The position numbers were made by a program, and so were the translations under genes. Below, in pieces: positions 5,291 through 62,942 of a stretch of DNA of 64,000 nucleotides (positions are counted from its first letter, which is position 1; each line of letters starts with the position of its first letter). This DNA comes from Escherichia coli (GTDB lineage Bacteria; Pseudomonadota; Gammaproteobacteria; Enterobacterales; Enterobacteriaceae). The notes below the pieces were generated by a model. It was not told where the DNA came from. It did no database searches and saw only the letters and a list, made by a program, of their open reading frames with translations. The DNA lies in the NCBI RefSeq assembly GCF_003991155.1, contig NZ_CP031294.1; one strand, given 5' to 3'.

Positions 5291-5316
5291 TATAGGTATA
5301 TACTTACCTACCTATG
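5291..5316 (-). promoter_or_regulatory. L-type dyad motif (TAAGTA/TACTTA family)
   Basis: ATAGGTA-n10-TACCTAT with an inner GGTATATACTTACC. The gene strand reads GGTAAGTATATACCTATAAT, upstream of 5241. Confidence 0.45.
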
Positions 5317-5431
5317 CATATACCGTTTAACGGCTGTTCAAATTCGTATCTAGTAACTCACTAATATATCCCTATGATTGCGGCTGTGAGATCGCATTTT
5401 AAACCTCACAGCCATATAAATAATGTCTAAA

Positions 5432-8400
5432 TCAGTTACTTGTTGCCCCAACAGTACCTGCAAATTTCAGCCATTGACCTGACGGACTTCTATTACTACG
5501 GTAATGATAAACGAGGATTGCGTTTGTAACTCCACCGTAGTCAGCTTTATGTGACGTTGTTAAACGAATTGTATAATCACCGTTAGGTAGATTAAAAACT
5601 TCGATTATAGATTCTGCTAATTCTACAGCACCAAATCCCGTTATATTGTTGATACTGCCAGCATTGAATCCCATAGCATCGCCAAAGCCAATCCAATAAC
5701 TTTTGCTAAACGCCCCATTTGATTTTAGGTGGCTAATGAATGTGGACAAACTCATGCCCATATCCCCACCTGAAACAGAGGAAGTTCGCACAGTCATACT
5801 TGGAAGAGCACTGCTCTTCACATAGGAACTTAGAAGGTTTGTTACCTCTGTTTTCGTATAGGCATTAAGGTTAGCCGCAGTCAAAGTAATATCGGCAGAG
5901 CCATCAAACGCCACACCAGCAATTTTCCTTGCTGTCTGCAATTTTGTGGCAGTGGCAGCATTACCAGTAGTGTTCTGATTACCGGTTGTATTCACACCAG
6001 GTATTGAATCCTTAGCGGTATATACCTGCGCCCACGCAGACCATGCCGCATCAGTGGTATCTCTTCGGGAGCGAATGAAAACCGGCGCATGTGCACCGCT
6101 CGTACCACTCCAGCCAATAAGCAACTCGCCCTCACCAGCAGCACTCGCACCTTTCATGTGCAATACGTTGCCATACGTGGTCGGGTAGCTATTGCTGTAC
6201 GCCTCGTACATTTGAATGCCAGCAGTACCTTGAGCAGAACCGCTTAACGCCGTAACTCGGCCACGAGATACCAATGTATTAATGTTGATATCGCCTGAGC
6301 CATCAAACTTAACACCATTGATGTTTCTCGCTGTTTGCAACTTCGTAGCTGTTGAAGCATTACCGTTCAAACTACCATTTACGCCACCAGTCACATTTAG
6401 TCCATTACCAATTGATACAGCACCGCTGGTATTATTAATTGTAATAGGTCGCAAACCGTTCCATGAACCTAATGTGTCTCCTGATGCTGTTAGCATGAAA
6501 TATGTGTTCGATCCATCATTACGGATAAAGAACCCAAAGCTACCGTAAGCAATGCGGAAACCATTTGCATATTTTGAAATGATCTCGCCAGAAGATGTCA
6601 AACCTCCAGATAATGTACCACCGGTAAGAGGTAATGCACCGACATCAGAGGCTGTTGGTTTGTTTTTCGTGTTATATACTCTTCGCCATCCTGGAGAATA
6701 ATCTGTGCCATTAAATACATAGATAAACTCCGCATTAGTGAGAGCACCAGAGACACTCGTCGTTGTGGCCGTTGTTATACGGATCGTATAATTGTTTGAG
6801 CTACTACCGTTATTAAATACCTCTATAACAGCTCCTGCCAATGGAATAACGCCACAACCAGTTTCACTATTTGGTATGGTTGCACTATTGGCATAGGCCC
6901 ACGCACATCGAGCAATCCATGACTTTGTGTTAAATGCTCCATTATTTTGCAATAACGTCACTAACTGTGCTGTTGTTATTGCTCCGCCATTACTTCCTGT
7001 AGTTAACCAACCAGTAGGAGATGCCGGGCAACCTATATTTGCTGGCGACAAGGAAATATTTGCCGAGCCGTCAAACGACACCCCATTAATAGTACGCGCA
7101 GTCTGCAACTTCGTAGCAGTAGCCGCGTTGCCCGTTGTATTCTGATTACCAGTCGTATTAACACCTGGCAAATTAATATTCGCAGTACCATCAAAGCTCA
7201 CGCCGCCGATAGTTCTTGCCGTCTGAAGTTTTGTAGCAGTTGCAGCATTACCAGTGGTGTTCTGATTACCCGTAGTATTTACACCTGGAAGGTTGATATT
7301 TGCAGAACCGTCGAAACCAACTCCACCGATAGATCTTGCCGTCTGCAATTTCGTGGCTGTACTTGCATTACCATTCAATGAACCAGTTAATCCACCTGTA
7401 ACAGACAACGGACCTGAAACTGTTCCTCCGGTTGTTGGCAGTGCTCCAATATCTGATGGTGTAGGTTTCTGATGTGAGCTATACATCGTATAAACAACAC
7501 CATCGGTAACGCTGGAAGGCTTACTCGCTGAATATGTTGGCGAGGTATAAATAGAAACTGTCGCATTTGCAGTACAATCCCAATGGATATTTACACGAGT
7601 CGCATAATTGCCAATCTCAACGTAAATATCATATGTATCGCCGGATGTGTTGATCCAGGCGAAATTCGTTAATCCGACAGCTGTACGCTTCCACAAAGCA
7701 CCTGTAATCCCTTTGGGGTTTCCATTGCCTGCTCGTAGAACCAGTTCTGAAATGCCTGCCTGATGTGGGGAGCCGACGTTGTAACCAGCGCCACCAATCA
7801 ATGCGATGTAAACGATGGAACTCGCTTGTGGCATGGTAACCGTAGCCAGTTTGAACCACCCTGCCCCGCCAGAGAAAGACATCGTTACTGAATTTAAAGT
7901 ACCAATATCTTTCGGCGTTAATGTGATATCCGCAGTCAGTGCTTTACCGTTAACTTTTCGGTTAGATGGCACCCTGCTATTCGCATTGTCATTGGCTGCT
8001 TTAACTGCTTTTGGCGTTGCGGCCAGCGATTCACTGGTGCTGTCGACAGCACTGCTAAGTTTCACAACACCTTTAGTTGTAAGGCTTGCGTCTTCCATCG
8101 CAACTGCACCGGCAATCTCTTCAGCACGATCAGCAGCAGCTTCCGCACGGGTCGCAGCGGATTCAGCAGCAGTTTTGCTCTGAGATGCTGCCGTCGCACT
8201 GCCTGCCGCCTCTGTTGCTTTCGTGGATGCCGTCGTGGCACTGCCCTTCGCTGCTGACGCCTGTCTGGTCGCCTCATCTTTTGAAGCAGACGCAGATGAT
8301 GCCGATGACGCCGCCGAACTGGCGGACGATGCGGCAGCCGTTTTTGAGGATTCTGCGCTGGTTTCCGACGCTTTCGCGTTCGTTTCGGATGTCTTCGCTG

Positions 8401-9460
8401 CGGAAGCAGACCTCGCTGCTGCGCTGGCCTGTTCAGTGGCTTCGCCAGCCTTCGTTGTGGCTGTTGAAGCAGACGATGCGGCACTTTCTGCCGATTTTCC
8501 GGCGGCGGTGGCACTGGCTGAGGCCTGCCCGGCACTTGTTGACGCGGCACTGGCAGACGACGCAGCCGCTGTTTTTGAGCCTGCCGCAGCTGAGGCACTC
8601 TGTGCTGCTGCCGTCTCAGAAGACTTAGCGTTCGTCTCGGACGTTTTTGCCGCCTTCGCGGAATTGCCTGCCGCTGTTGCCGAGGAGGCTGCACTACTGG
8701 CGCTCAAGGATGCGTTCGTTTCTGATGATTTCGCTGCCTCTTTTGAGGCCGCCGCATCCCGGACTGAGGTGGCAGCTTCTGACGCTTTCGTGGTCGCGGT
8801 GGATGCAGAAGTGGCTGCTGATTGTTGTGACGCTGCGGCATTCGTTTCAGATTTTTTCGCAGCAGTTGCACTCGCACTTGCGGCACTTTGTGAGGATGCC
8901 GCAGCGGATGCACTTTGAGACGCTTGAGAGGCTTTTTCTCCAGCGGTATTGGCGCTTTCTGCTGCTGCGGCAGCACTGGCCGCCGCCTCACGAGCTTTGT
9001 CGCCAGCAGCATCAATCGCGTCAGTGTTATTTTTATACCACTCAACGTTTTCGTTGTGCTCGTTGACGATCTGCATTAGCGGCTTAACGGTTACTTCTGT
9101 ACCGTCTTCACGCTCGATTGTCACCTCATCCAGAGCAGTCAACCAACTGCGCATAGACTTGGAATCAGCCGACATACGCGACATTAGTGCTGTAAAGCGC
9201 GCGCTAAACTGTGTTAAGTCGCCTTCATAGGTCGTAATGATTCGGCACGGAACCTCAGACTGAGTTTCGCCGGTATAAGGTTCTGAGAGAACAATATTCG
9301 TATCGCTTATTACGCGCTTGATCTCATACAGCTTATTGTCGGGGCCAATGACGATCATCCCCGGCAACACACCATTAGCTGTTACGTTCCAGGCTGTCCC
9401 TGCCCCAACCAGAGTATTGCTACCCTGTGTAAATGTGATAGTACCTTCCCTGTACCACAT
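5432..9460 (-). CDS. side tail fibre (lambda Stf-like collar, fibre repeats, two tip-like domains)
   Basis: 1342 aa. The Ala/Ser-rich segment ...AAKTSETNAAASQQSAATSASTATTKASEAATS...KGVVKLSSAVDSTSESLAATPKAVK matches the lambda Stf collar from memory. There are 5 copies of GNA(A/S)TATKLQTAR-x-I-x-GV-x-FDGS. Confidence 0.9.
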   Translation of the reverse strand: MWYREGTITFTQGSNTLVGAGTAWNVTANGVLPGMIVIGPDNKLYEIKRVISDTNIVLSEPYTGETQSEVPCRIITTYEGDLTQFSARFTALMSRMSADSKSMRSWLTALDEVTIEREDGTEVTVKPLMQIVNEHNENVEWYKNNTDAIDAAGDKAREAAASAAAAAESANTAGEKASQASQSASAAASSQSAASASATAAKKSETNAAASQQSAATSASTATTKASEAATSVRDAAASKEAAKSSETNASLSASSAASSATAAGNSAKAAKTSETNAKSSETAAAQSASAAAGSKTAAASSASAASTSAGQASASATAAGKSAESAASSASTATTKAGEATEQASAAARSASAAKTSETNAKASETSAESSKTAAASSASSAASSASSASASKDEATRQASAAKGSATTASTKATEAAGSATAASQSKTAAESAATRAEAAADRAEEIAGAVAMEDASLTTKGVVKLSSAVDSTSESLAATPKAVKAANDNANSRVPSNRKVNGKALTADITLTPKDIGTLNSVTMSFSGGAGWFKLATVTMPQASSIVYIALIGGAGYNVGSPHQAGISELVLRAGNGNPKGITGALWKRTAVGLTNFAWINTSGDTYDIYVEIGNYATRVNIHWDCTANATVSIYTSPTYSASKPSSVTDGVVYTMYSSHQKPTPSDIGALPTTGGTVSGPLSVTGGLTGSLNGNASTATKLQTARSIGGVGFDGSANINLPGVNTTGNQNTTGNAATATKLQTARTIGGVSFDGTANINLPGVNTTGNQNTTGNAATATKLQTARTINGVSFDGSANISLSPANIGCPASPTGWLTTGSNGGAITTAQLVTLLQNNGAFNTKSWIARCAWAYANSATIPNSETGCGVIPLAGAVIEVFNNGSSSNNYTIRITTATTTSVSGALTNAEFIYVFNGTDYSPGWRRVYNTKNKPTASDVGALPLTGGTLSGGLTSSGEIISKYANGFRIAYGSFGFFIRNDGSNTYFMLTASGDTLGSWNGLRPITINNTSGAVSIGNGLNVTGGVNGSLNGNASTATKLQTARNINGVKFDGSGDININTLVSRGRVTALSGSAQGTAGIQMYEAYSNSYPTTYGNVLHMKGASAAGEGELLIGWSGTSGAHAPVFIRSRRDTTDAAWSAWAQVYTAKDSIPGVNTTGNQNTTGNAATATKLQTARKIAGVAFDGSADITLTAANLNAYTKTEVTNLLSSYVKSSALPSMTVRTSSVSGGDMGMSLSTFISHLKSNGAFSKSYWIGFGDAMGFNAGSINNITGFGAVELAESIIEVFNLPNGDYTIRLTTSHKADYGGVTNAILVYHYRSNRSPSGQWLKFAGTVGATSN

Positions 9461-9504
9461 GTTGAATATGCTCCTTGATTTGGCGGGTTATCCTTGCCCG
9501 CCAT

Positions 9505-9523
9505 TAAGTAAATACTTACCTAT
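9505..9523 (-). promoter_or_regulatory. L-type dyad motif
   Basis: TAAGTA-aa-TACTTA palindrome followed by CCTAT, upstream of the tail fibre gene. A GGCGGG/CCCGCC hairpin (9482-9502) lies between it and the ATG. Confidence 0.45.
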
Positions 9524-14892: not shown

Positions 14893-15677
14893 GTCTCATC
14901 TCCCTTGAGCAAGTCTCTGTGACGCAAGTGATGCGTCGTATGTTTCTGATACATTCCGCCGTAATAAGCACGACAACTAAGACGGTCGATCTGGTGATGA
15001 AGAATCATTCCATCGCCGATATAAACCGCGCAGTGATCTGGCATTTTCCCGTATTGAATAAAGAAGACGTCCCCACGTTGAGGCTCTGTTCCAGGTGCAA
15101 GCCGTACCAATCCCTCGTTTCGGTAGTTCTGGTCGAGAATGTCGTTATCGCCGGTGTACCACGATGGAATATGCAGGTGTGCGTTCGGGTTAAGCTCGAC
15201 GTTAAACTCACGCTTCAAATAGTCCCGACACAACATCCAGCAATCGAATACGCCAAATACATACGGTCTACCCAGGTATGGCATTTCGAAACCATCAGGT
15301 GTGATCACATTCATCTCGCTAAAATGGAAAGGGGCATCTCCCTCAACATTCTTGCGAATAGCCAGAATCATCCACGGAACTTCCGTCGCTTCACAGCCTG
15401 CACGATCGGCATCAGATGCTTCTGCTGATTCATCAGTATGTGAATGCCAGATTGCGATTACGTCACCTGCATCCTCTGCCGCCATAATGTCGTCAACGTG
15501 CATTACAAAAGTGTTCTGCGGGTTCTCCGAAACATTTCGCGCTTCCATAAAGCGATATTTGTCGCCATTAGTTCTCACCAGAAAGCCACACGCTTCATTA
15601 GGGTAGCGATTTATGGCGCAGAGATAGATTTGCTGCATAACATCAGAGCCAAGCTCAGGGATTGCTTTATTACCCAT
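14880..15677 (-). CDS. tail tip assembly protein (lambda gpK-like; JAB/MPN + NlpC/P60)
   Basis: JAMM motif HSHTDESAEASDAD (HxHx7SxxD) followed by a Cys-containing NlpC/P60-like half (FDCWMLCRDY). The ORF-track start is TTG; the ATG at 15677 (GGAG 9 nt upstream) overlaps the gpL-like stop. Confidence 0.8.
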   Translation of the reverse strand: MGNKAIPELGSDVMQQIYLCAINRYPNEACGFLVRTNGDKYRFMEARNVSENPQNTFVMHVDDIMAAEDAGDVIAIWHSHTDESAEASDADRAGCEATEVPWMILAIRKNVEGDAPFHFSEMNVITPDGFEMPYLGRPYVFGVFDCWMLCRDYLKREFNVELNPNAHLHIPSWYTGDNDILDQNYRNEGLVRLAPGTEPQRGDVFFIQYGKMPDHCAVYIGDGMILHHQIDRLSCRAYYGGMYQKHTTHHLRHRDLLKGDETCLS

Positions 15678-16368
15678 ATCGCGTAGCTCCAATAAACCCG
15701 CCAAAATGGATCACTCCGTTGGCAAAATAATTCCGACGCGCATTACAGGCGTCATAACGTTTTGTGCAGTAATCAGCACCAGACATAGACGTCTGCTGGT
15801 TATTTTTGTCGAAATATGGACCGGTATAGCCGCATTCTGGCCCTCGGTATTTCCACGGGCAGGTGTTTTTAATGATCTGACGATACGGCAGTTGCACCCC
15901 CATCAAATCGAACACACTGGACAATTCAAACTCGACAACCTGATGAGTTTCGAGAGTTTTCTGTTCGATAAACCACATTTCATCCGGGAAATGTTGGTTT
16001 GGATCTGCTGTTGGGTTGCCGTCTTTAAAATTAACGGCATCGAGGAAGCGAGCCAGCGTCATCTTGCGAATAATGCGGCAGCCAACAAGATCGTCGTTCG
16101 CCTGAACTTCCGCAGAGACGGTTCCGGCAAAGTTCGATACCTGAATTTTTGGACGTGGCAACGTTCCCTGGCCAGTTTTGTCAAAGCCTGATGCTTTGAT
16201 TGGCCACGGCTCGTATGTCACTCCTTGCCAGACGACCGGTTGCATCAGTTCGTTTGTTCCGGCGTGGAAGAATAACTTCCCCCCTGAAGTTGTGTTCGAC
16301 ATATCCAGTACGAACAACTCAATGAGTGCAGAGGGAGATAAGCTCTGAATATCAGCTTTAATTCCCAT
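15670..16368 (-). CDS. minor tail protein (lambda gpL-like)
   Basis: Shares ARFLDAVNF, NTCPWKYRGPECGY and a C-terminal Cys cluster with lambda L. Start set to ATG 16368 (AAGGA 7 nt upstream). Confidence 0.85.
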   Translation of the reverse strand: MGIKADIQSLSPSALIELFVLDMSNTTSGGKLFFHAGTNELMQPVVWQGVTYEPWPIKASGFDKTGQGTLPRPKIQVSNFAGTVSAEVQANDDLVGCRIIRKMTLARFLDAVNFKDGNPTADPNQHFPDEMWFIEQKTLETHQVVEFELSSVFDLMGVQLPYRQIIKNTCPWKYRGPECGYTGPYFDKNNQQTSMSGADYCTKRYDACNARRNYFANGVIHFGGFIGATRYG

Positions 16369-16418
16369 TGTTTCATCCTTGAAATAAGTAGGCGCTAACA
16401 TCCTGTCAGCGCCACAAT

Positions 16419-16445
16419 GATAGTAAATTAGTACTTACTTATCCA
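16419..16445 (-). promoter_or_regulatory. L-type dyad motif
   Basis: The gene strand reads GGATAAGTAAGTACTAATTTACTATCAT, upstream of the gpL-like gene. Confidence 0.4.
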
Positions 16446-16450
16446 GATAC

Positions 16451-16786
16451 TTAAGCCTCAAATACTTGTCTGAATGTAGCAGTTAAGACACAGTACCCCT
16501 GATATCGCTTGACCGTATGACTGTCACATACAACTACAATCCGTTTTCCTCTTGGATTAACCCAATAGAACGACTCAACGCCTGCTCGCTCAGTCAGGAA
16601 GTCATCGATTGCATTAATTTCGTTGTATGATCTGGTAAAGGTTAACGACCATTCTTCTTTAATACGATTAAGACCTTGAGCCTGTCGCTGCTCGTAGTCA
16701 TCACCAAAATTAAGTACCGTTACATTCGGTTTTACGCTTTTTTCAGATTCGTAATCTGGATACCAATTAAACGTTTGTCTTTCCAT
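16451..16786 (-). CDS. minor tail protein (lambda gpM-like)
   Basis: 111 aa. FGDDYEQRQAQGLN matches the lambda M motif FGDGYSQRAPAGLN. Confidence 0.8.
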   Translation of the reverse strand: MERQTFNWYPDYESEKSVKPNVTVLNFGDDYEQRQAQGLNRIKEEWSLTFTRSYNEINAIDDFLTERAGVESFYWVNPRGKRIVVVCDSHTVKRYQGYCVLTATFRQVFEA

Positions 16787-16828
16787 CTCACATCCTTGTG
16801 AGACTGCCCCGGTCGGGGCAGTCGATAG

Positions 16829-19800
16829 TTAGTTACGTTGAGTGTTTGGGTTGAGTGATCCGCCAGGGCGTTTCTCTTGAGCGATAGTCTCAAGCGCGAT
16901 TGCTTTCATCCGTTGAGCGGCATTGTTCCATATGCTTTCTGTATCGCCGGATTCAGTTGTGCTACCGTCACTATGGACGTTGATCTCAATTGATACAGGA
17001 GAAAGAACATTTCCTCCTCCACTCATACCATCGGTACTGAGCGTTACAGGGATTGTTCGACCATCAGGCAATGGAACATACGCCTCATTCATATCGCCTT
17101 CCCCAAACAACGCCAATTGAGGTGAGTTGGCGATACCGCCTTTCTGGTATGCCCGGAGCGGGATCACGCCGTCTTTTCCGAATATGCCACCATTTGCAAA
17201 CTTCGGAATTGCAGGAATACCATTCGTGCCATCGGCAGCAGAACTGGTCAGATTGTTGAACCCGGAAGTTGAGCCAGAAGAACCGGACATCAATCCATCG
17301 AATCCACCACCAGCCCATACTGAAACCAAACCAGATGCAACTGTCGCGCCGAAATTCAACCACTTATTACCAGAGCCGGAAGCATTAGCTCCAAGCATTG
17401 CAAACGCGGCAGACAGAGCGCCGGTAACAGAGCTGAGGTTCTGCATCGAGAAGATGGAGTCCTTCACTGCTTTTGTCTCAGCATCTTTGGCTTCGGTGCT
17501 ATTAAATAGCCCTGATACCCAGCTACCAATCGCATTTGTTGCTGTGCCAATTGCGCTGGTGGTCTGCTGTGTCGTTTGCCCCAATCCAGTTACCGAACTG
17601 GACGTCTCCTTCGTGGCTTCTCCTACCGACTTGTCGCCATTAACAGTGTTGCTTATGCGCACACCTTGATTGGCAACTGCGGAAGCAACCCCGGTGAGCA
17701 AATTACCACTCTGTGAACTACCAGCTGCGGTGGTTCCCATCCCCAACATGTTCATTAGAGGCAGCGTGATCTGCGACTTCACGACCATATTGGTGATATC
17801 TTTCAAAATGGACTGAGATAGGCTGGAGAAGCTCATCTTCCCGTTAATAACGAAATCAGTCAGGACATCAGTTAAGCCACTAAACAAATCAGTCCAGGTG
17901 CTTTCGATCTGCTCTGCCAGATTTTCGTATTCCAGTGCCAACTTCTGCGTCGCAGTCCCCGTCTCTTTAATAAGCGCGGTATTGCCAGCAGCAATCAGTT
18001 GATTGATTTTCTTTGTATAAAGCGCCACAACTTTAGGATCAGACGCCTTATCACGAAGTTCTATCAACGCTTTGAGATTGCGGTTGTAGGTGTCTTCGAA
18101 ATCAGCAACTTTCTCTTCGCGAGACGGCGTATAGCCAGCACTAATAATGGAATCCGCCTCCGGTGCCCAAGTGGAGATCATCTGCTCAACATTGCGGCGA
18201 TTAAACATCTCACGATATTCAGGTGTCGCATTTTTGAGGTCTTCAAGACGTTTTTTCGCCTTGTCGATCATCTCTTGAGTGATGAACTCGTTAGGAACCG
18301 CATTAGCCAAATCTGTCAGCGATTTCGTTGTATCGCGAAGAGACTGATCAAACGATACCGTAGCCTTAGAGCTTTCACCCATTTGCCCCATAAGCTGATC
18401 GGCTTTGTCCAGAGCCTTCTGGTATCCGGCTGCCAGTTTCTGTTGCGCTGCCTGTTCCTTCTTGGCCGCACGCTGCGAGGCGTTAGCTGATCGTTGGGCT
18501 GCTTTCTCGGCAGCTGCTGCATCCTGTTCACGAGCTTTAGTAAGTGCGGCAATGGCTGCGGCACGCTCTTCATCGCTCATTTTCTCCAGAGAGCTGGCAC
18601 TGGATGCTTTCTGCAAATTAAGCTGCGTCTTGAGTTGTTTAGGCCCAATAATCGGCTTACCTTCGAAGTCCATCATCGGAGTGCCGTCAGGCAAAGTACG
18701 CTGATAAGTCGCAGAATCCATCTGGTTTCGCATATATTGCGCCAACGCCTTCTGAGCAGCTTTATCAGTTGTACCTAACCCAAGAACAGTCCCCTGGTTT
18801 GACATTACGCCCTTACCAGTTTTGGCCGCGTTATCTCTCTCGAACTCTGCCTGAGTAAGTTCCTGAGCAACGGCTTCCAAATGCTCCTGATAACCACGAA
18901 TACTGCCTTGCAGTTTCTGGATTTGCTCGGTATTGCCATCCTTTTTGGCTTTTTCAAGCTGATCATTAAGAGTCGCGATTTGCTTCTCGGTCGCATTCTT
19001 ACGAGAAGAAAGTGAATCAACCAGTTTTTGCGCAGGCTCCAGATAGCTTTTGTTTACCGTTTCACGTAACGGTGCCAATAGCTTGTTCTTTTCGTCATCT
19101 GAAAGTGAACCGTCATCATTGATTTTCTGGATCTTATCCAGAGCCTCCTGCCGGGCTTTCACGAATGTTGCCGCGAAAATCTGGTTTTCCGCTCGAATTT
19201 TCTCAATCTGAGATTCGGCAGCCTCTTTAGCCAAACGCTTTGCTACAGCGCCGTCACCAAGAGCTATCGTGCCGGTTATCTTTTGATACTCTTCCTGATT
19301 TTTTTTCAGGCGTGCTTCGATGTCAGCCTTCGACTCTTTGTGAGTAATAACACCGGCAGAGTTAGATACGTAATTAACACCCTCACCAGTTTTTAATGCT
19401 CGTTGATCAGCAAGAATCTGCTTTTCGAGCTTTTCTGCGCGGTCGGCCATTTGTGCACGTTTGGCCGCCGTCATCGCCTCTGGTATTTTCCTAATCTCGT
19501 CAACGACCTTTGAAGTTTCGCTGCGGAGCATGGTCATGTACGTGATTAGGCCAGCAACAGCTACAGTGGCAACTGTAAATGCTGCCCCTATAGGGTTTGC
19601 TGCAATGAACGCCGTTAATCCAGCAAAAGCGCCTTTAAGCCCCGTAATCGCCCCACGGATGGCGAAAATAAGAGAGGGGATCGGAGCCAGCCCCATACGT
19701 GCCGCACGATTGAATCGGGTTACTGCTGTAGCGCCGAGGTTAAATGGAGTCTGTATGGCGGTCGCCATCGTGGCAAAGGTGCTAACCATCTGGCTGCCTG

Positions 19801-21421
19801 CGCCAACTACCCCCATGATCCCTGCTCGCATCAGTTTGAACGCAACCATCGCGGCCACGACCTTACCGAGATTAATTACCAGCTCTTGGTTCTTTGCTAA
19901 CCATTGAGCAAGCTGACGCAACCCATCGATTGCCGTCGTTAACCCCGAGCCTAAAGAATTGGCAAACGAAATCCCTTCGGCGCTATTCATGATTGAAGCC
20001 AGTTCTTTCATCCCCTTCGATAGAGAATCCAGATATCCGGCCTGACCAACCCGATCAGCAAATAACGTGAATGACGTCTGAAGTTGCGCCAGCGCACCTG
20101 TGTAGGTTTGCATCATGTCTTTCGCTGCGTTCTCATTCTCCGCACGCAGACCAACAAACATCAGAGACAACGCCTGTTTTGCCTCAACCGTACCGCTGGC
20201 AACGGCTTTAGTCAGTTCCCCCATAGTGATGCCTGCGGCGTCTGCCATTGCCTGCATCGCGTTAGGAACGGCTTCACCTAATTGCTGACGTAGCTCTTCC
20301 ATTGACACAACGCCCTTACCGGACATCTGCTGAACGGCCACAGCCGCACGTTTCAACAGCTCACTATCACCACCAAAACGAGCAACGGAGTCCACCAGCG
20401 CCTTCAGAGAACCATCGGTTGGATCTAAGCCAGCAGAACGAAACTTCACGAAGGAATCTGTTAACGCCTGCATCGCGAACGGCGCATTTTGCGCCATGTC
20501 TACGATGTACTTCATATCATCAGCGGCAGCCTGGCCCGGGTTGGACTTCTCCTTATTCAACCCTCGAAGCATCACCCGCATACGTTCCATTTCGGCCGCA
20601 GCTTCAACAATAGGCTTCTGCCACCCAAACATGATGTCAGTAACCGTTCTGGCTGCATCTCCGATCTCGCCAAGCAGGAAAATGTTGCCACGAAGGCCAG
20701 AGAACATACCTCCTTCGTTACTTTTACCGCTATGGCCAGAAGCGCCGCTACGCCGCCCGCTACCACCATCGCCACTTCCAGATGTACGAACGCGTACCGG
20801 CTTGCTAATCAGTTGCTGACGTCCGATAACTTCGTCCATCTGCTCACGAACCTTTTTCAGTCCCTCGGCAGCCTGACTCGTTGTGACACCCCAATTACTG
20901 AGTCGCTTCGTCGTGGTATTAAGGCGCGTATTCATGCCACTCACGGACGCAGAGGCTTCTTTGGCCTCCGTACCAAAGCGGCTTGCGCTTTTGCTTGCAT
21001 AGGTCGCCCAATCAGAGAAATCATTTAGCTCTGATTGCACTTTACGTAATGACGCGGTGAGTTTATCTACTGAAGAAGTTGTCGTATCGACGCGCTCAAT
21101 CAGGGCTTTAAGACCAGAATTGAGGCTGGTGATGTTGCCACGCATTTTACGCGTAGCATCTGAAGCAAGCTCAAAACCGGCAGCTACATCCTGTAGTTTA
21201 TCTGCCGTAGAATCGAGCTTGCTTTCCAGAACGCCAATGATACGGGCGACCGAACCCAAAGAGCGTTCAAAGGTTTGGATTTTTTGAGCAGGCTTTGTTA
21301 CCTGCTCACCAAATCGAGTAAGCAGTTTCCCCGCACGATCGATTGACGCTGTAAACTGTTTGTCTTCCAGCGACAGGATAAACTCTACGTTTTGTGACAT
21401 TCCCTTGTCATCCTCTGCCAA
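16829..21421 (-). CDS. tail tape measure protein
   Basis: 1530 aa, helical, with hydrophobic central segments and a Gly-rich C-terminus. Position lies between the G/GT and gpM-like genes. Confidence 0.9.
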   Translation of the reverse strand: MAEDDKGMSQNVEFILSLEDKQFTASIDRAGKLLTRFGEQVTKPAQKIQTFERSLGSVARIIGVLESKLDSTADKLQDVAAGFELASDATRKMRGNITSLNSGLKALIERVDTTTSSVDKLTASLRKVQSELNDFSDWATYASKSASRFGTEAKEASASVSGMNTRLNTTTKRLSNWGVTTSQAAEGLKKVREQMDEVIGRQQLISKPVRVRTSGSGDGGSGRRSGASGHSGKSNEGGMFSGLRGNIFLLGEIGDAARTVTDIMFGWQKPIVEAAAEMERMRVMLRGLNKEKSNPGQAAADDMKYIVDMAQNAPFAMQALTDSFVKFRSAGLDPTDGSLKALVDSVARFGGDSELLKRAAVAVQQMSGKGVVSMEELRQQLGEAVPNAMQAMADAAGITMGELTKAVASGTVEAKQALSLMFVGLRAENENAAKDMMQTYTGALAQLQTSFTLFADRVGQAGYLDSLSKGMKELASIMNSAEGISFANSLGSGLTTAIDGLRQLAQWLAKNQELVINLGKVVAAMVAFKLMRAGIMGVVGAGSQMVSTFATMATAIQTPFNLGATAVTRFNRAARMGLAPIPSLIFAIRGAITGLKGAFAGLTAFIAANPIGAAFTVATVAVAGLITYMTMLRSETSKVVDEIRKIPEAMTAAKRAQMADRAEKLEKQILADQRALKTGEGVNYVSNSAGVITHKESKADIEARLKKNQEEYQKITGTIALGDGAVAKRLAKEAAESQIEKIRAENQIFAATFVKARQEALDKIQKINDDGSLSDDEKNKLLAPLRETVNKSYLEPAQKLVDSLSSRKNATEKQIATLNDQLEKAKKDGNTEQIQKLQGSIRGYQEHLEAVAQELTQAEFERDNAAKTGKGVMSNQGTVLGLGTTDKAAQKALAQYMRNQMDSATYQRTLPDGTPMMDFEGKPIIGPKQLKTQLNLQKASSASSLEKMSDEERAAAIAALTKAREQDAAAAEKAAQRSANASQRAAKKEQAAQQKLAAGYQKALDKADQLMGQMGESSKATVSFDQSLRDTTKSLTDLANAVPNEFITQEMIDKAKKRLEDLKNATPEYREMFNRRNVEQMISTWAPEADSIISAGYTPSREEKVADFEDTYNRNLKALIELRDKASDPKVVALYTKKINQLIAAGNTALIKETGTATQKLALEYENLAEQIESTWTDLFSGLTDVLTDFVINGKMSFSSLSQSILKDITNMVVKSQITLPLMNMLGMGTTAAGSSQSGNLLTGVASAVANQGVRISNTVNGDKSVGEATKETSSSVTGLGQTTQQTTSAIGTATNAIGSWVSGLFNSTEAKDAETKAVKDSIFSMQNLSSVTGALSAAFAMLGANASGSGNKWLNFGATVASGLVSVWAGGGFDGLMSGSSGSTSGFNNLTSSAADGTNGIPAIPKFANGGIFGKDGVIPLRAYQKGGIANSPQLALFGEGDMNEAYVPLPDGRTIPVTLSTDGMSGGGNVLSPVSIEINVHSDGSTTESGDTESIWNNAAQRMKAIALETIAQEKRPGGSLNPNTQRN

Positions 21422-22075
21422 ATATTTGCATCAGTTGCTCTTTGGCGTCAGGGTCTGCCTTATCCTGGCTTGGATCGTAGACTTTATCTGTTACGACTGG
21501 TCTTCCAATCCTGAGTTGCAAACCCTCCATGAACGCCTTCACAGCCTCGCCATCCGCCTGGGACGCACGAGCGACTTGTAAGTTGCGGACATCCTCTTCC
21601 GCACGCAGACGGTCTATATTGCGACTGAGCATCCAGAACATCGTGAGAGGAACGTTCAGTAGCTCTAATGGCGACACGGCGTAGTGAGCAACTACACGAC
21701 TGAAATAGAATCCGAGATCTATTGAGACGGTCCTTGTCCCGGATTCATCGCGGGAAATTACTTTGCCCCTTCGCCAGCCGCTTTTTCGTTTTCTTCATCA
21801 ATCACTTCCATAGCGAAGGTGAAGATCTGCTGGAGTTGCGGAACAGTCAGTTTTTCAAGAACTTCGTCAGGTACTGAAGGGATAACCTTACGAACCAGAT
21901 CTGCATAAGCTGTCACTTGCTCAACAGGAGACATGTTCATGAGATCTTTGCCTTCCATCTGCTTGATGGAAACGAACAGACCTACCGTCATTTCAACGAT
22001 GGGATATTCCTGACCGCCAAATTTGATGCTTTTCTTCGGAGGCAGAATGGAATCGAGATCGAGTAATTTGGTCAT
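21408..22075 (-). CDS. tail assembly chaperone fusion (gpGT analogue) via a -1 programmed frameshift
   Basis: The -1 frame is open from about 21790 through the G stop to 21408. Candidate slip sites GAAAAAG (21781-21787) or CAAAG just before the TAA (21761-21765). Confidence 0.55.
21758..22075 (-). CDS. tail assembly chaperone (gpG analogue)
   Basis: 105 aa acidic protein immediately upstream of the tape measure gene, ending ...EENEKAAGEGAK. Confidence 0.75.
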   Translation of the reverse strand: MTKLLDLDSILPPKKSIKFGGQEYPIVEMTVGLFVSIKQMEGKDLMNMSPVEQVTAYADLVRKVIPSVPDEVLEKLTVPQLQQIFTFAMEVIDEENEKAAGEGAK

Positions 22076-22089
22076 TGGTTAAAATCCTT

Positions 22090-22118
22090 TTAAAAGAGAG
22101 GCCCATCCTGAGCCTCTG
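22090..22118 (-). terminator. attenuator hairpin after the major tail gene
   Basis: AGAGGC-n9-GCCTCT followed by CTTTTAAAA on the minus strand, 13 nt after the stop at 22131. Confidence 0.45.
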
Positions 22119-22130
22119 CTTAATTACTGA

Positions 22131-22877
22131 TTAATCTGCGGGGTTAATCGTTACTGACTTAGTTGCCTTCTTACCACCGCTATTGCTGGTGAAGGAGATA
22201 TTTGTAGAACCCTGCGCCACACCACGTACCAGACCCGTTTGATCTACCGTGGCCTTTTCCTGGTCTTCGGATTCCCAAACACCGGTTTTGTCTGCGGCAT
22301 CAGCTGGAGTGATTTCGGCTGTCAGTTGCACAGTTTCTCCAGCTTTTACGGTTGGAGATTCCGGTGAGATCGACACAGTTTTTACCGGTTTAGGACCGCT
22401 CATTTTGCCCAGAACGCCTTCATCATCCGGGTATGCGCTGAACTGAACAGAGAACACACGAACATCATCAGACTGGTAGGTCATAGTGAAGTTGCCCGCG
22501 GTTGCCGCTTTCGGGATGGTCAACACATAGTCGGTGGTGTCCTGCGGAGTCAGAACCAGCTCCTTCGCCACATCAATCAGGTTAACGCCCTGTGCAGATG
22601 TGATCGTGACAGAGTTGTCATCTTCGCTCAGAGTAGAACCAGGCATCAGGTCAACCATGTTTTGGAGTACAGACTCAGCCAGAGGCGCGGTGATGGTAAT
22701 GTTGCGCCCCTGAACTAATTCGGAAATTACGGTCTGCCCCAACTGATCGACGGTGACTTTCAGCGTTTCAGTGGCTACTTCAACCTGAACACCACCTTTG
22801 GTGTAACCCAAATCCACACCACCAAACGACACCTTACAGGCACCAAGTTTGATGTTTTTTACATGGGTATTAGACAT
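22131..22877 (-). CDS. major tail tube protein with a C-terminal Ig-like (Big_2) domain
   Basis: Start set to ATG 22877 (AAGGAG 10 nt upstream). C-terminal VSISPESPTVKAGETVQLTAEITPADA...KATVDQTGLVRGVAQGSTNISF is a Big_2-type repeat, as on lambda gpV. Confidence 0.8.
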   Translation of the reverse strand: MSNTHVKNIKLGACKVSFGGVDLGYTKGGVQVEVATETLKVTVDQLGQTVISELVQGRNITITAPLAESVLQNMVDLMPGSTLSEDDNSVTITSAQGVNLIDVAKELVLTPQDTTDYVLTIPKAATAGNFTMTYQSDDVRVFSVQFSAYPDDEGVLGKMSGPKPVKTVSISPESPTVKAGETVQLTAEITPADAADKTGVWESEDQEKATVDQTGLVRGVAQGSTNISFTSNSGGKKATKSVTINPAD

Positions 22878-22926
22878 TGATGGAAAACTCCTTTTTCCGT
22901 TAATTCTACGCATTCATTGCGCTAAT

Positions 22927-22944
22927 AGTAAGTATATACTTACT
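22927..22944. promoter_or_regulatory. L-type dyad motif, perfect 18-bp palindrome
   Basis: AGTAAGTATATACTTACT is its own reverse complement, 50 nt upstream of the tail tube ATG. Confidence 0.5.
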
Positions 22945-22951
22945 AATTGAG

Positions 22952-26502: not shown

Positions 26503-26520
26503 ATAGATAATTACTTATCT
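26503..26520 (-). promoter_or_regulatory. L-type dyad motif
   Basis: AGATAA-ttac-TTATCT. The gene strand reads AGATAAGTAATTATCTATGTT. Confidence 0.4.
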
Positions 26521-26530
26521 ACTTCACTGA

Positions 26531-45035: not shown

Positions 45036-45040
45036 TATTC

Positions 45041-45069: not shown

Positions 45070-45176
45070 TAACCTATTGATATTTAAGGATGTGATTCCA
45101 GGCATGGAAGGGGAGTAGTGGCGATCAACGGATTCTTATAGAAAAGAATCAAATTGTGACCGCCATTATCAATGTT

Positions 45177-45911: not shown

Positions 45912-45956
45912 TTCTTTGATAATCCTAAAAACAAACTACCAATGCTTTAATATCTG

Positions 45957-46256
45957 TTACCAGTTCCAGCACTCAAGCCCTTCAACGACCGGCGCACCAC
46001 AATCAAAATGTACAGAGTCAAAGCCTACATCAAGTACTTTCTGAATGTTAGCAATCGCGCCTTCGGATATACCATATCGACGCAAGTCCTCTTTCCAGAC
46101 ATCATCCTGTAACCCAGCGTGGACAATACAACCGCCGTCAATTTGTGAAACCCAATCCAGCTCATTGCTTGCGATCATGAATCGGCGAGCATCTTCCTCT
46201 GATGTATGAGATGAGCTGATCAATGCCACCTGGTAGGCTTGGGTAATGTTCAACAT
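45957..46256 (-). CDS. hypothetical protein (99 aa)
   Basis: ORF with RBS CGGAG and an E-type module upstream. Ends ...PVVEGLECWNW. Confidence 0.55.
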   Translation of the reverse strand: MLNITQAYQVALISSSHTSEEDARRFMIASNELDWVSQIDGGCIVHAGLQDDVWKEDLRRYGISEGAIANIQKVLDVGFDSVHFDCGAPVVEGLECWNW

Positions 46257-50676: not shown

Positions 50677-50837
50677 TGTATTGCACCATCGCACACCCAG
50701 ACATAGCTAAAATCGCACCGACAATACCGCTTTTCCAAAAAGCTCTAATTAGGTCATTCGTTACCTAATGTCCGAACTGCTAAAGCATCCAAGTTGCTGT
50801 AGAATCACATCCAATTACTTAAACCTGAAATAAGTGG

Positions 50838-60074: not shown

Positions 60075-60322
60075 ACAACCGCCTTAGTCACAGCATGATC
60101 CTGAGTAACCGGATGAACTTGAGGTATCGCATCCACCGTCATCCCATCCAGAGTGACAGGACGCTCTACTGGAGTGGTGGTAATTGTCGTCGACGGAGGT
60201 GTGGTGATGGATGAACCCGGCATCAAAAGGCTCTGGCCGGCTGGAACGGCTACCGTCGCCAGTGAAACTATAATGAGAACGTAGGCCATTGGTTTCAGCC
60301 TCTTTCTTTGAAAATTTTCCAT
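60071..60322 (-). CDS. secreted Thr/Pro-rich small protein
   Basis: Signal-like MENFQRKRLKPMAYVLIIVSLATVAVPAGQ. Coupled (ATGA) to the downstream membrane protein. Embedded in another frame of 60084..60578. Confidence 0.45.
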   Translation of the reverse strand: MENFQRKRLKPMAYVLIIVSLATVAVPAGQSLLMPGSSITTPPSTTITTTPVERPVTLDGMTVDAIPQVHPVTQDHAVTKAVV

Positions 60323-60578
60323 TCGAACTGTCCTTGTTGTTTTTCTCCTTCACTAAAGGCCGTGTACTTTTCGCTTCGCGTGAAGAACCAGAGGCAACAA
60401 TCGCCCCCACGTTCGCAACAACTGACGCTTGATTATCTAAACGTTCATTCAGCAACCGAACGGTAGTCTCTAGTTCATCAAGACGTGACATAACACGACC
60501 GCTAAACAATTCGGCCAAAATTTGACGTAAAGAACGAGGACGTTTAGTTGCAGAAGTGAAATAGGTTTGACGTGCCAT
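60084..60578 (-). CDS. hypothetical protein; only the N-terminal ~80 aa look protein-like
   Basis: The N-terminal part is coiled (SRLDELETTVRLLNERLDNQ). The C-terminal half (S/H/G/D-rich) overlaps the better-supported 60071..60322 frame. The true 3' end is unclear. Confidence 0.35.
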   Translation of the reverse strand: MARQTYFTSATKRPRSLRQILAELFSGRVMSRLDELETTVRLLNERLDNQASVVANVGAIVASGSSREAKSTRPLVKEKNNKDSSNGKFSKKEAETNGLRSHYSFTGDGSRSSRPEPFDAGFIHHHTSVDDNYHHSSRASCHSGWDDGGCDTSSSSGYSGSCCD

Positions 60579-60706
60579 GTGGACTCCATCCAGTGTCAGA
60601 AAGAGTTGCGGCTGGCGATTGCCAGCCGCCTTTCTCGTTCCATCCTGGAACTGTGTCTTACCGACACATTGTCATCCTGACGCTGATAAGATACATGATT
60701 TAAAAT

Positions 60707-60728
60707 GATAGGTAAACACTTACTTACC
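60707..60728 (-). promoter_or_regulatory. L-type dyad motif (right of the metG-hsd block)
   Basis: The gene strand reads GGTAAGTAAGTGTTTACCTATCAT. GGTAA/TTACC arms. Confidence 0.4.
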
Positions 60729-61317
60729 ACTTGTTATAAACAAAACCAATATCTTTCTTGTGAGGCATATCTGCTGCTGAAAAAGCTGCGATCTTCGCGA
60801 GTCGATCACATATTTCATTTTCACGATGCCCGGCGTGACCTTTAACCCACTTCCAGCGAACATTATGTCGACTTGCGGCCTCATCCAGACGTTTCCACAG
60901 ATCAACATTCTTTACCGGTTTTTTATCAGAAGTCATCCATCCATTACGTTTCCACCATTTCATCCACTGTGTCATGCCGTTTTTCAGATACTGGCTATCA
61001 GAGTACAAAATAACGTTGCATGGATATTTCAAACGCTCCAGCCCGATAAGTGCGCCCATCATCTCCATGCGGTTATTGGTGGTGCTATGAAAACCATCTG
61101 AGAACTCGCGTTCCTCACCACGATACTGGAGAACGATACCGTAACCGCCCGGGCCACCCGGATTTTTAAGGCAAGAGCCATCACTAAAGATTTTCACGGT
61201 TTTGAGCTGGGGATTGAACTCTACGACAGGCGTTGTGGGATTGGTGCGGGGAGAATTTTTGTTTTTGGCTTTTTTGCGAGTTTTTGCTTGCGATCGGGCT
61301 GGTGTCTTCGTCGTCAT
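60724..61317 (-). CDS. rnhA: RNase HI with a basic N-terminal extension
   Basis: Trimmed to ATG 61317 (CAGGAG 5 nt upstream). RNase H core FSDGSC...GGYG...TNNRMEM...SDSQY...W..H.GH..NE..D, preceded by about 45 aa rich in K/R/P/T. Confidence 0.85.
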
Positions 61318-61355
61318 ATAAACTCCTGAATCAAGCGCCGCGCCGATTTTTTCCT

Positions 61356-61380
61356 CGCGCGTGCGCACACGCGTGCGTGT
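61356..61380. repeat. 25-nt perfectly alternating pyrimidine-purine tract (Z-DNA-prone)
   Basis: CGCGCGTGCGCACACGCGTGCGTGT. Contains the 8-bp palindromes GTGCGCAC and CACGCGTG. Confidence 0.85.
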
Positions 61381-61403
61381 TAATAATTATTAAAATAAAC
61401 AAA

Positions 61404-61783
61404 TTACTTCCCAGAACAGGTTTTTTATAAACCTGAACTGAACGAACGAAGTGAGTGAAGTTCACCTCGAACGAAGTGAGAGGTTGTCTTTTCAGGTAAT
61501 ACTCTCCCAGGGAGGTGAGTATAAAATTCCTCACCAACCTGGTCGTTTCATAACCTGAAAAGCTATGGTCTAAGTCTACTGCCAGCTTAGACTTGGGAAG
61601 TTATGGATGACAGCACCCCAGAACCGAGATCTTCCCACACTTTATGAAGGGGAGTACTGGATTCAACCTCTCGAAACACCCCAGACTCGACAATCATAAA
61701 GTGACCCTTGTCTCTGCTCACTTTGGTTCCCCCTTCCCCGACACCTAAACGGCACCGGTTCTACGCTGGTAGTGAGCTTTTTT
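61404..61783 (+). ncRNA. candidate about 345-nt structured RNA (orientation tentative)
   Basis: Promoter-like TTACTT-N16-TATAAA (61404-61431). Direct repeats CGAACGAAGTGAG x2. Nested helices: GTCTAAG/CTTAGAC, GGGAAG/CTTCCC, ACTTTATGA/TCATAAAGT enclosing GGGG/CCCC, and GCTCACT/AGTGAGC followed by T6 (61778-61783). No credible ORF. Confidence 0.4.
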
Positions 61784-61882
61784 AAACCTGACGCCAGTGA
61801 CGCTTACCCCCACCCATCAGGTCGAGTCTCCAGTCTACGACTGGAAACTATCAGATCTTAGCACTTACAATTCACTTTATGA

Positions 61883-62317: not shown

Positions 62318-62911
62318 CTAAGCAGCCTTCTTTGATGGTCTTTTTTTCCTGATCACATTCGCAGGATCATACCCTCCCAGACTTTTCATGACGTCCAAAG
62401 GGATCTTGCTTATAGAGTGCCCAGCGTCCTGACAGAATCCTCGAAAAACAACGAGCATACTGCCACCGGGGTTGATGTTTACTTCTACCTGACCCAAATT
62501 GACGTCAGGCTCGACAAACGCTACGCGGCCACCAGACAGAATAATCGTCTCATTCGCACACTCTGTTGCACGCTCATACCACTTTGTATCGAGGGATTGA
62601 GGAATTAGCATCACTGTTGTAACTCCGCGAGCCTGCTCACGTATAGCCGCATCAATCCAGGGGGAGATTTTGGAGTAGGGTGGATTGAGGAAGGCAATTG
62701 TACCTGGCTGTCCCCATTCAGATTTCAAAGCATCACGCTCAACGCCTATGAAATTAGGCAGCTTCGCATTGTCCTTGTTGCAGGCAACGTCAACATCAAA
62801 TGTCACTCCAAGATAACGTTGAATGGCAGAAAACAGCCAGTCAGGTGTTCTCCAGAGGTCACGAAGAGAGTTGTCGCGCTTTCGCTGTTTGATTTTTTCG
62901 GCTGCAATCAT
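62318..62911 (-). CDS. phage-type DNA N6-adenine methyltransferase
   Basis: 197 aa. WRTPDWLF...FDVDVA...AFLNPPYS layout of the phage Dam family. Confidence 0.8.
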   Translation of the reverse strand: MIAAEKIKQRKRDNSLRDLWRTPDWLFSAIQRYLGVTFDVDVACNKDNAKLPNFIGVERDALKSEWGQPGTIAFLNPPYSKISPWIDAAIREQARGVTTVMLIPQSLDTKWYERATECANETIILSGGRVAFVEPDVNLGQVEVNINPGGSMLVVFRGFCQDAGHSISKIPLDVMKSLGGYDPANVIRKKRPSKKAA

Positions 62912-62922
62912 CTTCTTTCTCG

Positions 62923-62942
62923 ATAGGTAAGTGATTACCTAT
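62923..62942. promoter_or_regulatory. L-type dyad motif, perfect 8-bp arms
   Basis: ATAGGTAA-gtga-TTACCTAT, 12 nt upstream of the methylase ATG. Confidence 0.5.

Follow-up and report, generated by a model that had tools for sequence, protein, structure and literature searches.

The palindrome and its sites

The DNA analyzed here is a stretch of 64,000 nucleotides from Escherichia coli (contig NZ_CP031294.1; the whole stretch is called the window), which comes from an SSU5-like phage-plasmid and carries, in front of many of its phage genes, copies of a 20-bp palindrome. Bases 20000 to 44000 of the window are 100% identical to E. coli plasmid NZ_OW849379.1 (110.7 kb, IncFIB, non-mobilizable) and 82% to 99% identical to the phage-plasmids SSU5, Cyrano (pLF82), and their relatives. 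The window corresponds to positions 32001 to 96000 of NZ_OW849379.1, and "record" coordinates below refer to that entry. Beyond approximately 52.4 kb, the coding sequences (CDSs) of NZ_OW849379.1 are offset from the open reading frames (ORFs) of the window by +12 nt (hsdR) and +19 nt (genes past 57.5 kb), which indicates that the window is not base-for-base NZ_OW849379.1 there; gene coordinates in that part were taken from the ORF list. The comparison set consisted of the remainder of the plasmid, SSU5, Cyrano, phage P1, and 80 portal-centred loci from relatives. SSU5-like phage-plasmids are common and include pHCM2 (S. Typhi), pMT1 (Y. pestis), pLF82/Cyrano, and relatives in Klebsiella and Enterobacter; some of them carry resistance genes, and approximately 800 PLSDB records contain the structural module together with the candidate regulators discussed below. 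The literature searched holds no description of lysis-lysogeny control in this group, and a 2024 review names no regulator.

The palindrome consists of the half-sites ATA(G/A)GTAAGT and ACTTAC(C/T)TAT, with the four central bases least conserved. Its consensus is ATAGGTAAGTACTTACCTAT, or ATGATAGGTAAGTACTTACCTATCAT as a 26-mer with flanks, and alignment of the sites on the gene strand gives (A/G)ATA(G/A)G-TAAGTA-nTTAC(C/T)-TAnnnT. The sites in the window, with bit scores from a matrix trained on SSU5, are as follows.

5292..5311, minus strand: upstream of the holin gene (4906-5229); 25.3 bits; SSU5 orthologue at 27474
9504..9523, minus strand: upstream of the tail-fibre gene (5432-9460); 26.6 bits; SSU5 orthologue at 21937
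16423..16442, minus strand: upstream of the gene for minor tail protein L, gpL (15670-16368); 22.3 bits; SSU5 orthologue at 15589
22928..22947, minus strand: upstream of the Ig-domain tail tube gene (22131-22877); 21.4 bits; SSU5 orthologue at 9067
26503..26522, minus strand: between the major capsid gene and the Ig-like decoration gene (25537-26457); 22.2 bits
28419..28438, minus strand: inside the portal 3' end, upstream of the DUF6651/scaffold-like gene (27432-28319) and the major capsid gene; 27.7 bits
29926..29945, minus strand: fills the 26-nt gap between the terminase large subunit and portal genes, with the portal ATG 10 nt past the palindrome; 23.9 bits
35217..35236, no single strand: divergent region between a ParB-ParB-ABC-wH88 operon (minus) and a helicase operon (plus); 20.0 bits
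42745..42764, minus strand: upstream of a 131-aa gene (42306-42701), just after a terminator hairpin; 14.9 bits; SSU5 orthologue at 93165, 17.3 bits
60708..60727, minus strand: upstream of a 164-aa gene (60084-60578); 25.8 bits; SSU5 orthologue at 79904, 28.5 bits
61882..61901, minus strand: weak, one-sided site heading a CDS-poor stretch of approximately 1.3 kb; 14.5 bits; SSU5 orthologue at 78709
62923..62942, minus strand: near-perfect palindrome ATAGGTAAGTGATTACCTAT, 11 nt upstream of the ATG of an adenine methyltransferase gene (62318-62911); 27.5 bits; SSU5 orthologue at 77651

On the gene strand, site 5292 reads GTAGGTAAGTATATACCTAT-AAT, which creates the -10-like box TATAAT, and site 60708 reads GTAAGTAAGTGTTTACCTAT-CAT. 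Site 16423 has an irregular right half, overlapped by a sigma-70-like call (TGGATA-17-TATCAT), and site 35217 abuts the self-complementary sequence ATTATAAT. Hairpins follow some sites, including a terminator-like one at 26480 to 26496 after site 26503 and a stem-loop between the palindrome and the ribosome-binding site at site 9504.

A sequence-only reading of the window had grouped 12 TAAGTA/TACTTA dyads into one family. All 12 places carry the sequences it gave, and 11 of them belong together, nine at 20 to 27.5 bits and two (42745 and 61882) weaker. The twelfth, at 31966, does not belong (6.4 bits; leave-one-out score, -2.0), being the centre of a separate 55-bp palindrome, and the strong site in the portal gene (28419 to 28438) was absent from the list. 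The 18-bp perfect palindrome reported at 22927 to 22944 exists, with its register 2 bp off the family consensus. In place of the variable pattern TAAGTA-N5-9-TAT(C/A)AT, the sites have the fixed form TAAGTA-N6-TAnnnT, since the TA is part of the palindrome.

The motif is real, strongly nonrandom, and conserved. To avoid circularity, a symmetric 20-bp matrix was trained on SSU5 sites only and then run over the window, where it found 10 sites at ≥17 bits; 200 dinucleotide shuffles yielded 0.025 such sites on average and never more than 1. Intergenic DNA alone (9.9 kb) contained 8 sites versus 0.015 in shuffles of the same DNA. In an unbiased 14-mer search of intergenic DNA, TAAGTAnnTACTTA occurred in 13 regions versus at most 10 in 40 shuffles, and two motifs exceeded every shuffle, namely, the 20-bp palindrome and the AAGAAAACAAnTTG motif named by the sequence-only reading. 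That the sites are a chance product of AT-rich intergenic composition, an explanation the reading had itself raised, would fit the behavior of short words: the hexamer TAAGTA by itself is not overrepresented in the window (14 and 22 copies on the two strands), exact 8- to 10-mers, the 9-mers included, are not significantly overrepresented after correction for multiple testing, and a 10-mer search allowing one mismatch is borderline. However, the counts from the independently trained matrix, in the window and in intergenic DNA alike, together with the conservation of site positions across lineages, leave this explanation a negligible probability. A search for the perfect consensus in 185,579 species genomes returned 13 scattered single matches in unrelated metagenome-assembled genomes, an uninformative yield close to that expected by chance. 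The motif is undescribed in the literature searched, and full-text queries for it returned nothing relevant.

Two further palindromes were observed in the window. The 55-bp near-perfect palindrome centred on 31966 (31947 to 32001; CCTGCATCTGTATATATAAATAATAAGT-A-ACTTATTAAATATATACGGAAGCAGG) lies between the gene of an 88-aa winged-helix protein (wH88) and terS and is kept, although the centre changes, in lineages from the Escherichia type to lineage L071. The core reads AAGTAACTT on the gene strand (AAGTTACTT on the plus strand) and matches the late-promoter box of phage P1; termination of an operon, a pac-related function, and a special promoter for terS are possible roles of the palindrome. 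The other, an isolated palindrome at 50749 to 50768 (TTAGGTCATTCGTTACCTAA; 11.9 bits), is located between hsdM and the theta-subunit/UmuD-like genes and combines the motif's outer TAGGT/ACCTA arms with an unrelated centre.

Regulon and conservation across lineages

Across the whole plasmid, approximately 22 sites score at least 20 bits or close to it. SSU5 has approximately 25 sites, at orthologous places, and Cyrano has approximately 20 (25 at ≥14 bits). The sites are located just upstream of genes, on the coding strand. Behind them lie structural and lysis genes (portal, scaffold-like/capsid, decoration, tube, gpL, fibre, and holin), genes of DNA metabolism (SSB, nrdA, thymidylate synthase, an SbcD-like nuclease among SbcCD-like genes, and the helicase/primase region), and also the tRNA cluster, methylases, and several small genes. 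The suggestion that the motif marks a late promoter class is therefore too narrow, since the sites also head the SSB, nrdA, thymidylate synthase, helicase/primase, SbcCD-like, tRNA, and methylase units. The operons expressed during lysogeny (parA, repA, and toxin-antitoxin modules) lack strong sites. The palindrome thus provides a map of the lytic regulon and of its transcription-unit boundaries.

Two side observations concern these units in Cyrano and the window. The Cyrano tRNA cluster (Asn, Thr, and Ser; 39021 to 39268 in the Cyrano sequence, L092) overlaps "CYRAN_40," which has a signal of 151 in the lysogen. The stretch 60579 to 61881, downstream of site 61882 on the minus strand, holds hardly any annotated CDS in approximately 1.3 kb and has no Rfam match; its Cyrano counterpart ("CYRAN_81," 44 aa) is at 12 times background in the lysogen while its neighbors are silent, and the stretch may be a regulatory RNA.

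The sites are conserved in more distant relatives. At the terL/portal junction, the palindrome is kept in all lineages examined, including those with portal identities of 69% to 81%. The palindrome in the portal 3' end is kept in lineages L071/L069 and L081, and the one at the capsid/decoration junction is kept in L071/L069, where it reads ATAGGTAGTC(A/G)CCTACCTAT. The diverged lineages retain the outer ATAGGTA arms and have lineage-specific inner bases: the L071/L069 palindrome is ATAGGTGGTTAACTACCTAT (L071 type, GGTTAACT), and the L081 palindrome is ATAGGTATTTAAATACCTAC (L081 type, ATTTAAAT). The portal tail peptide differs accordingly (KSVLT, SLSTT, or RYVNT), matching the palindrome of each lineage, and the flanks TTGA(A/T)A and TATGAT are preserved. 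A portal peptide altered to fit the palindrome between preserved flanking boxes indicates selection on the DNA. More broadly, the last 35 or so portal codons (28341 to 28500) are variable between lineages and encode the promoter plus the palindrome, the peptide following the DNA motif.

DNA site versus RNA structure

A palindrome between co-directional genes might act in the transcript, as a hairpin serving as a terminator, processing site, or translational operator, or as a terminator on the antisense strand. The sequence can be folded into an AU-rich hairpin of 8 to 10 bp, the A-rich upstream flank would give a T-run on the opposite strand, and a homologue of the RNA-binding repressor FljA is encoded at 37618 to 38142. 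However, specific bases rather than pairing are conserved. Among 36 sites, the halves deviate independently, with 286 paired positions versus 286.6 expected when the right halves are shuffled, and each site has approximately two mismatched pairs, with G-U (29) and A-C (24) showing no strand bias. The palindromes were not called as terminators in a terminator scan, and the window contains no match to an Rfam family. The hairpin or terminator was rejected on the pairing and strand-bias test, the terminator scan, and Rfam, and a role at the RNA level is considered very unlikely. The independence of the halves, with the absence of terminator calls and Rfam matches, indicates a binding site for a symmetric, dimeric DNA-binding protein.

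The FljA homologue itself (plus strand) is a 174-aa protein with a full-length match to PF03614 (FljA, phase-1 flagellin repressor; E value, 1.5e-84) and represents a copy of the posttranscriptional flagellin repressor carried by the phage-plasmid.

Position relative to promoter-like elements

The palindrome ends in TAT, and these three bases also begin a -10-like hexamer. At positions +8 to +13 from the centre, the base counts over 36 sites are T32 A33 T22 C15 A21 T22, and the match to a -10 element is 3.78/6 versus a background of 1.56. From this register we infer that the sites are promoters in which the palindrome would span about -29 to -10. Three of the 12 sigma-70-like calls in 16001 to 36000 fall on 3 of the 6 palindromes there. 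A complete -35/-10 pair occurs at a minority of sites. Site 28419 is the 17-bp spacer of TTGAAA-17-TATGAT (28444 to 28416), the best sigma-70-like match in 16001 to 36000, and the promoter of CYRAN_56 in Cyrano is TTGAAA-17-TATCAT, with TTGAAA-17-TATTAT as its orthologue in the plasmid (record 4224). With this fixed register and the positional conservation, the sites are very probably palindromes bound by a regulatory protein in promoter cores. The sequence-only reading had left two possibilities, a promoter class peculiar to the phage and an operator for a dimeric regulator (activator or repressor); its general idea is upheld in the form of a dimer-type DNA dyad within promoter cores.

A second motif, AAGAAAACAAnTTGTTTTCTT, was observed as 21-mers starting at 2309, 31867, 41009, 41494, 42244, 43147, 43631, 46266, 46317, 59084, and 59813. 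It follows a -10-like box (GATAAT/TATTAT) by approximately 9 nt and immediately precedes the ribosome-binding site, so that it would occupy about +1 to +20 of promoters that form a class of their own with a sigma-70 look. That class heads small early-type genes, terS, dnaB, a cobT-like gene, and parA.

Comparison with known systems

The 20-bp palindrome, although undescribed, is of a familiar type. The closest likeness is with P1, another phage-plasmid with many dispersed transcription units, a copy of the element before its packaging genes, and a small winged-helix gene before the terminase genes (the Lpa model is a winged helix, as is that of wH88). P1 has 11 late promoters, all bound by Lpa (PMC10695390). 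The seven annotated ones have the form gAC-AAGT(G/T)ACTT-N4-TAnnnT, and the palindrome, GGT-AAGTACTT-ACC-TAtcAT, has the same AAGT/ACTT half-sites; in both cases, a -10 element is combined with an inverted repeat in place of a -35 element. However, the repeat is 9 bp long in P1 versus 20 bp here, where the outer ATAGGTA arms are most conserved; the core here is 8 bp without a central base, and the gap to the -10 element is 3 nt versus 4 nt. The regulon here also covers replication and nucleotide-metabolism genes, and the expression data lean to repression. The 9-bp AAGTnACTT variant is not enriched as a second class (AAGTNACTT occurs 2 times in the window versus 1.28 expected). The Lpa family (PF25716) is confined to P1-like elements. 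No Lpa homologue was found in the plasmid or SSU5 with the family hidden Markov model (HMM) (best E value, 0.95, on six-frame ORFs) or with tblastn (E values of at least 0.44), hhalign of wH88 against Lpa gave a probability of 0.6%, and a Foldseek search of the Lpa model against viral structures returned generic winged-helix matches only, with no SSU5-like protein. The likeness to P1 late promoters is architectural, and membership in the same family fails on spacing, protein, and gene set. The comparison may nevertheless reveal convergent design among plasmid prophages.

In its C1 system, P1 also offers a plasmid prophage silenced by one repressor through scattered operators that overlap promoters, with weaker sites at the repressor's own gene. 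The C1 operators, however, are asymmetric 17-mers (of the ATTGCTCTAATAAATTT type, NC_005856), C1 binds as a monomer, and the P1 structural genes are not under direct C1 control. No C1 homologue was found here (tblastn E values of at least 1.6). The LexA sites annotated in the P1 record are of a different class from the palindrome, and the consensus ATAGGTAAGTACTTACCTAT lacks the CTG/CAG arms of the LexA (SOS) box CTGT-N8-ACAG.

Two other systems resemble the palindrome in arrangement. On plasmid RK2/RP4, KorA and KorB bind short palindromic operators repeated at the -10 region of many promoters and, with a constant spacing of operator and promoter, repress replication, maintenance, and transfer functions co-ordinately. 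The KorA operators are 12 bp long, and both sequences and proteins are unlike those here; the likeness is a general one, and no KorA homology was seen, no search for it having been made. The operator of phage P22 Arc at Pant, ATGATAGAAGCACTCTACTAT, is approximately 21 bp long, palindromic, and placed between the -35 and -10 elements of a strong promoter. The outer sequence here (ATGATAG...CTATCAT) and the position of the palindrome between -35 and -10 recall it and are a lead only. Arc has a single operator versus a regulon here, and the sole candidate that looked like a ribbon-helix-helix protein failed the profile tests.

Expression in Cyrano lysogens

Per-gene transcriptome sequencing (RNA-seq) values for Cyrano in LF82 lysogens, all from uninduced samples, are given in Supplementary Table S1 of a published study (PMC9928086); the median background in LB is 9.8. 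All genes that follow a strong palindrome have background values in LB: portal, 9.8; scaffold-like, 10.9; capsid, 7.4; gpL, 6.9; fibre, 9.6; holin, 8.6; SSB, 9.1; nrdA, 7.6; and ParB, 5.0. At the divergent site 35217, the helicase side is expressed (46 to 114) and the ParB side is silent (5.0). The promoters before CYRAN_4 (TTGAAA-17-TATGAT, the Cyrano counterpart of 28444 to 28416, ahead of the scaffold/capsid genes) and CYRAN_56 are at floor level in LB-grown LF82(Cyrano). Promoters with such near-consensus boxes should be active unaided. Their silence in the lysogen therefore points to repression, for which the palindrome in the spacer would be the obvious operator.

No general step-up of expression is seen at palindromes in uninduced Cyrano (MB6, P = 0.58), and the steps in LB and B6 tend downward; the orthologue of site 22928 shows a step of +2.5 log2 in macrophage-grown lysogens. 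In the macrophage 6-h samples, the downstream level falls as the palindrome score rises (Spearman rho, -0.48; P = 0.02; n = 23). The leaky sites are weak ones (CYRAN_12, 34, 56, and 60) and the strong ones do not leak, as would be expected of operators rather than of activator sites. Overall, the published lysogen data lean towards repression. The highest signal of the element by far (7084, approximately 720 times background) belongs to "CYRAN_43" (40268 to 40822 of L092).

Candidate binding proteins and models of control

Pfam and PHROGs scans of approximately 40 small proteins returned only the helix-turn-helix (HTH) domain of an XRE-type regulator, ParB_N domains, and a FljA-like and a UmuD-like protein. 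The divergence of neighboring proteins across the lineages with altered motifs proceeds in parallel and singles out no binder. Three candidates were considered.

Record 16963-17349, outside the window: XRE-type HTH regulator (WP_001282576.1), adjoining the integrase gene
32026-32292, minus strand: wH88 (WP_000176292.1), an 88-aa basic winged-helix protein, just upstream of terS; candidate binder
36844-37122, plus strand: 92-aa basic protein (WP_001291060.1), second gene of the helicase operon; weak candidate binder

The XRE gene is present in approximately 860 related plasmids and is expressed in the lysogen (95.8). Upstream of it, a TAATAT box is directly followed by a weaker palindrome core, GTAATATCGGTAAG(C/T)ACTTACCA, which would thus lie at the transcription start. 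E. coli and Klebsiella share this core in spite of diverged flanks; the arrangement looks like the geometry typical of autoregulation. Phage SSU5 (L004, 40000 to 44000) lacks the module of XRE regulator and integrase. Its flanks are 98% to 99.4% identical to those of Enterobacter plasmids that carry the module, which indicates a recent deletion in SSU5; the phage is probably a clear-plaque or virulent derivative. The objection that XRE cannot be the binder, being absent from SSU5, was withdrawn on this ground.

That the protein represses rather than activates, and which protein it is, we only infer; repression is the more likely mode. One phage-encoded dimeric DNA-binding protein would recognize all of the approximately 22 copies, which head nearly every lytic unit, from replication and nucleotide metabolism to head, tail, and lysis genes. 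During lysogeny, when the element is a plasmid, the repressor would sit on the spacer and -10 element of each promoter and block RNA polymerase; upon induction, the repressor would be lost and the promoters would fire. The most plausible binder under repression would be the XRE-type regulator adjoining the integrase. That the lytic genes are kept off in this way, by a prophage repressor at dispersed operators as with P1 C1 or RK2 KorA, is given about an even chance.

Several observations weigh against repression at these sites. Most of them lack a -35 element (best TTGACA match at 16 to 18 bp, 2.67/6 versus 2.45 at random positions), and this absence counts because it is a hallmark of activator-dependent promoters in phages. 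The -10-like flank is nearly mirrored upstream (ATGATA), and no significant asymmetry is left at +12 when a single genome is considered (P = 0.31 and 0.054). Several sites lie only 10 to 17 nt before the start codon, so that transcription starting approximately 7 nt after the -10 element would give mRNAs that are leaderless or without a Shine-Dalgarno sequence. A repressor with operators within late operons is unusual for phages, P1 C1 controlling early genes and lpa only, and a simple HTH would be expected to have a conserved half-site shorter than 10 bp. Between E. coli and Klebsiella lineages with the same palindrome, identity of the XRE protein reaches only 56%, and the region of the XRE gene itself holds no strong palindrome (best, 10.5 bits). 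The correlation between score and expression is post hoc, weak to modest, and drawn from data that include no induced sample.

Some of these features would be expected of activator-dependent, -35-less promoters of a middle or late class, at which a dimeric lytic activator bound at -29 to -10 would recruit the sigma-70 polymerase; the absence of a -35 signal, the fixed register to the -10-like box, and the AAGT/ACTT half-sites shared with the Lpa-bound promoters of P1 all fit. The candidate activator is wH88. Its AlphaFold model is confident (pLDDT, 82) and matches the DNA-binding domains of MarR-family proteins in Foldseek (MepR, ZitR, AdcR, and MarR; TM scores of 0.71 to 0.76; E values of 1e-4 to 1e-3), and as modeled, wH88 appears to be a minimal MarR-like winged helix. 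The match covers the winged-HTH core only (88 aa versus approximately 140 to 150 aa in MarR; target-normalized TM score, approximately 0.45 to 0.50); wH88 has no Pfam match, lacks the N- and C-terminal helices of the MarR dimer interface, and resembles minimal winged helices of the APE_0880a, AF1382, or SSV1 F-93 type. The protein is 84% to 89% identical across genera that share the motif. Like the motif's outer ATAGGTA arms, its putative recognition helix is invariant in all lineages; its wing varies, as the inner bases do. Its gene precedes terS as lpa precedes pacA. The Cyrano orthologue, CYRAN_123, is silent in the lysogen (7.8), as expected of a lytic activator, so that it could act in the lytic phase only. 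Yet the two palindromic promoters with near-consensus boxes at a 17-bp spacing are silent in the lysogen, which calls for a repressor rather than a missing activator, and weaker palindromes give more expression in uninduced cells. Expression of wH88 would itself need a palindromic promoter (35217). The missing Lpa homologue, the different geometry, and a regulon that reaches beyond late genes also count against an activator of the P1 kind. Activation is thus a possible but less likely explanation of the sites.

A third kind of binder, with a repressive or architectural role, might be a KorB-like silencer of the ParB family, the 92-aa protein, or a host factor. Two proteins with a ParB N-terminal domain (33851 to 35199) are encoded in the operon headed by site 35217, and the dispersed palindromic operators of RK2 KorB and KorA provide a precedent. 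However, these ParB-like proteins have no HTH or specific DNA-binding domain beyond ParB_N and are silent in the lysogen (5.0 to 9.5). The 92-aa protein is expressed there (CYRAN_117; 114, or 12 times background), but profile tests gave no DNA-binding signature, and it is only 50% to 63% identical across genera, with residues that vary between lineages sharing the motif. An assignment of the 92-aa protein to the ribbon-helix-helix fold was unsupported by phmmer, a PDB profile search, and hhalign against Arc. A host factor is at odds with inner bases that differ between plasmid lineages within the same host family. Such a binder is judged unlikely.

Repression by the XRE regulator and activation by wH88 could also be combined in a genome-wide two-state switch, in which XRE would occupy the approximately 22 promoter cores in the plasmid state and wH88 would bind the same sites after induction and activate these -35-less promoters. 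The AAGT/ACTT core held in common with the P1 Lpa boxes would then be a shared solution not recognized before, or a sign of common ancestry, in two phage-plasmid families that are otherwise unrelated. We regard this combined scheme as improbable.

Other features of the window

A partition-like module occupies 1250 to 2277 on the minus strand, with a ParA-like ATPase (1609 to 2277) followed by a 117-aa basic protein (1250 to 1603) whose C-terminal part looks like a ribbon-helix-helix centromere-binding protein. Positions 43623 to 45176 form a 1.55-kb stretch without annotated CDS, containing doubtful ORFs only, and the composition of 44001 to 46000 is unusual (AT skew, -0.22; GC skew, +0.11).

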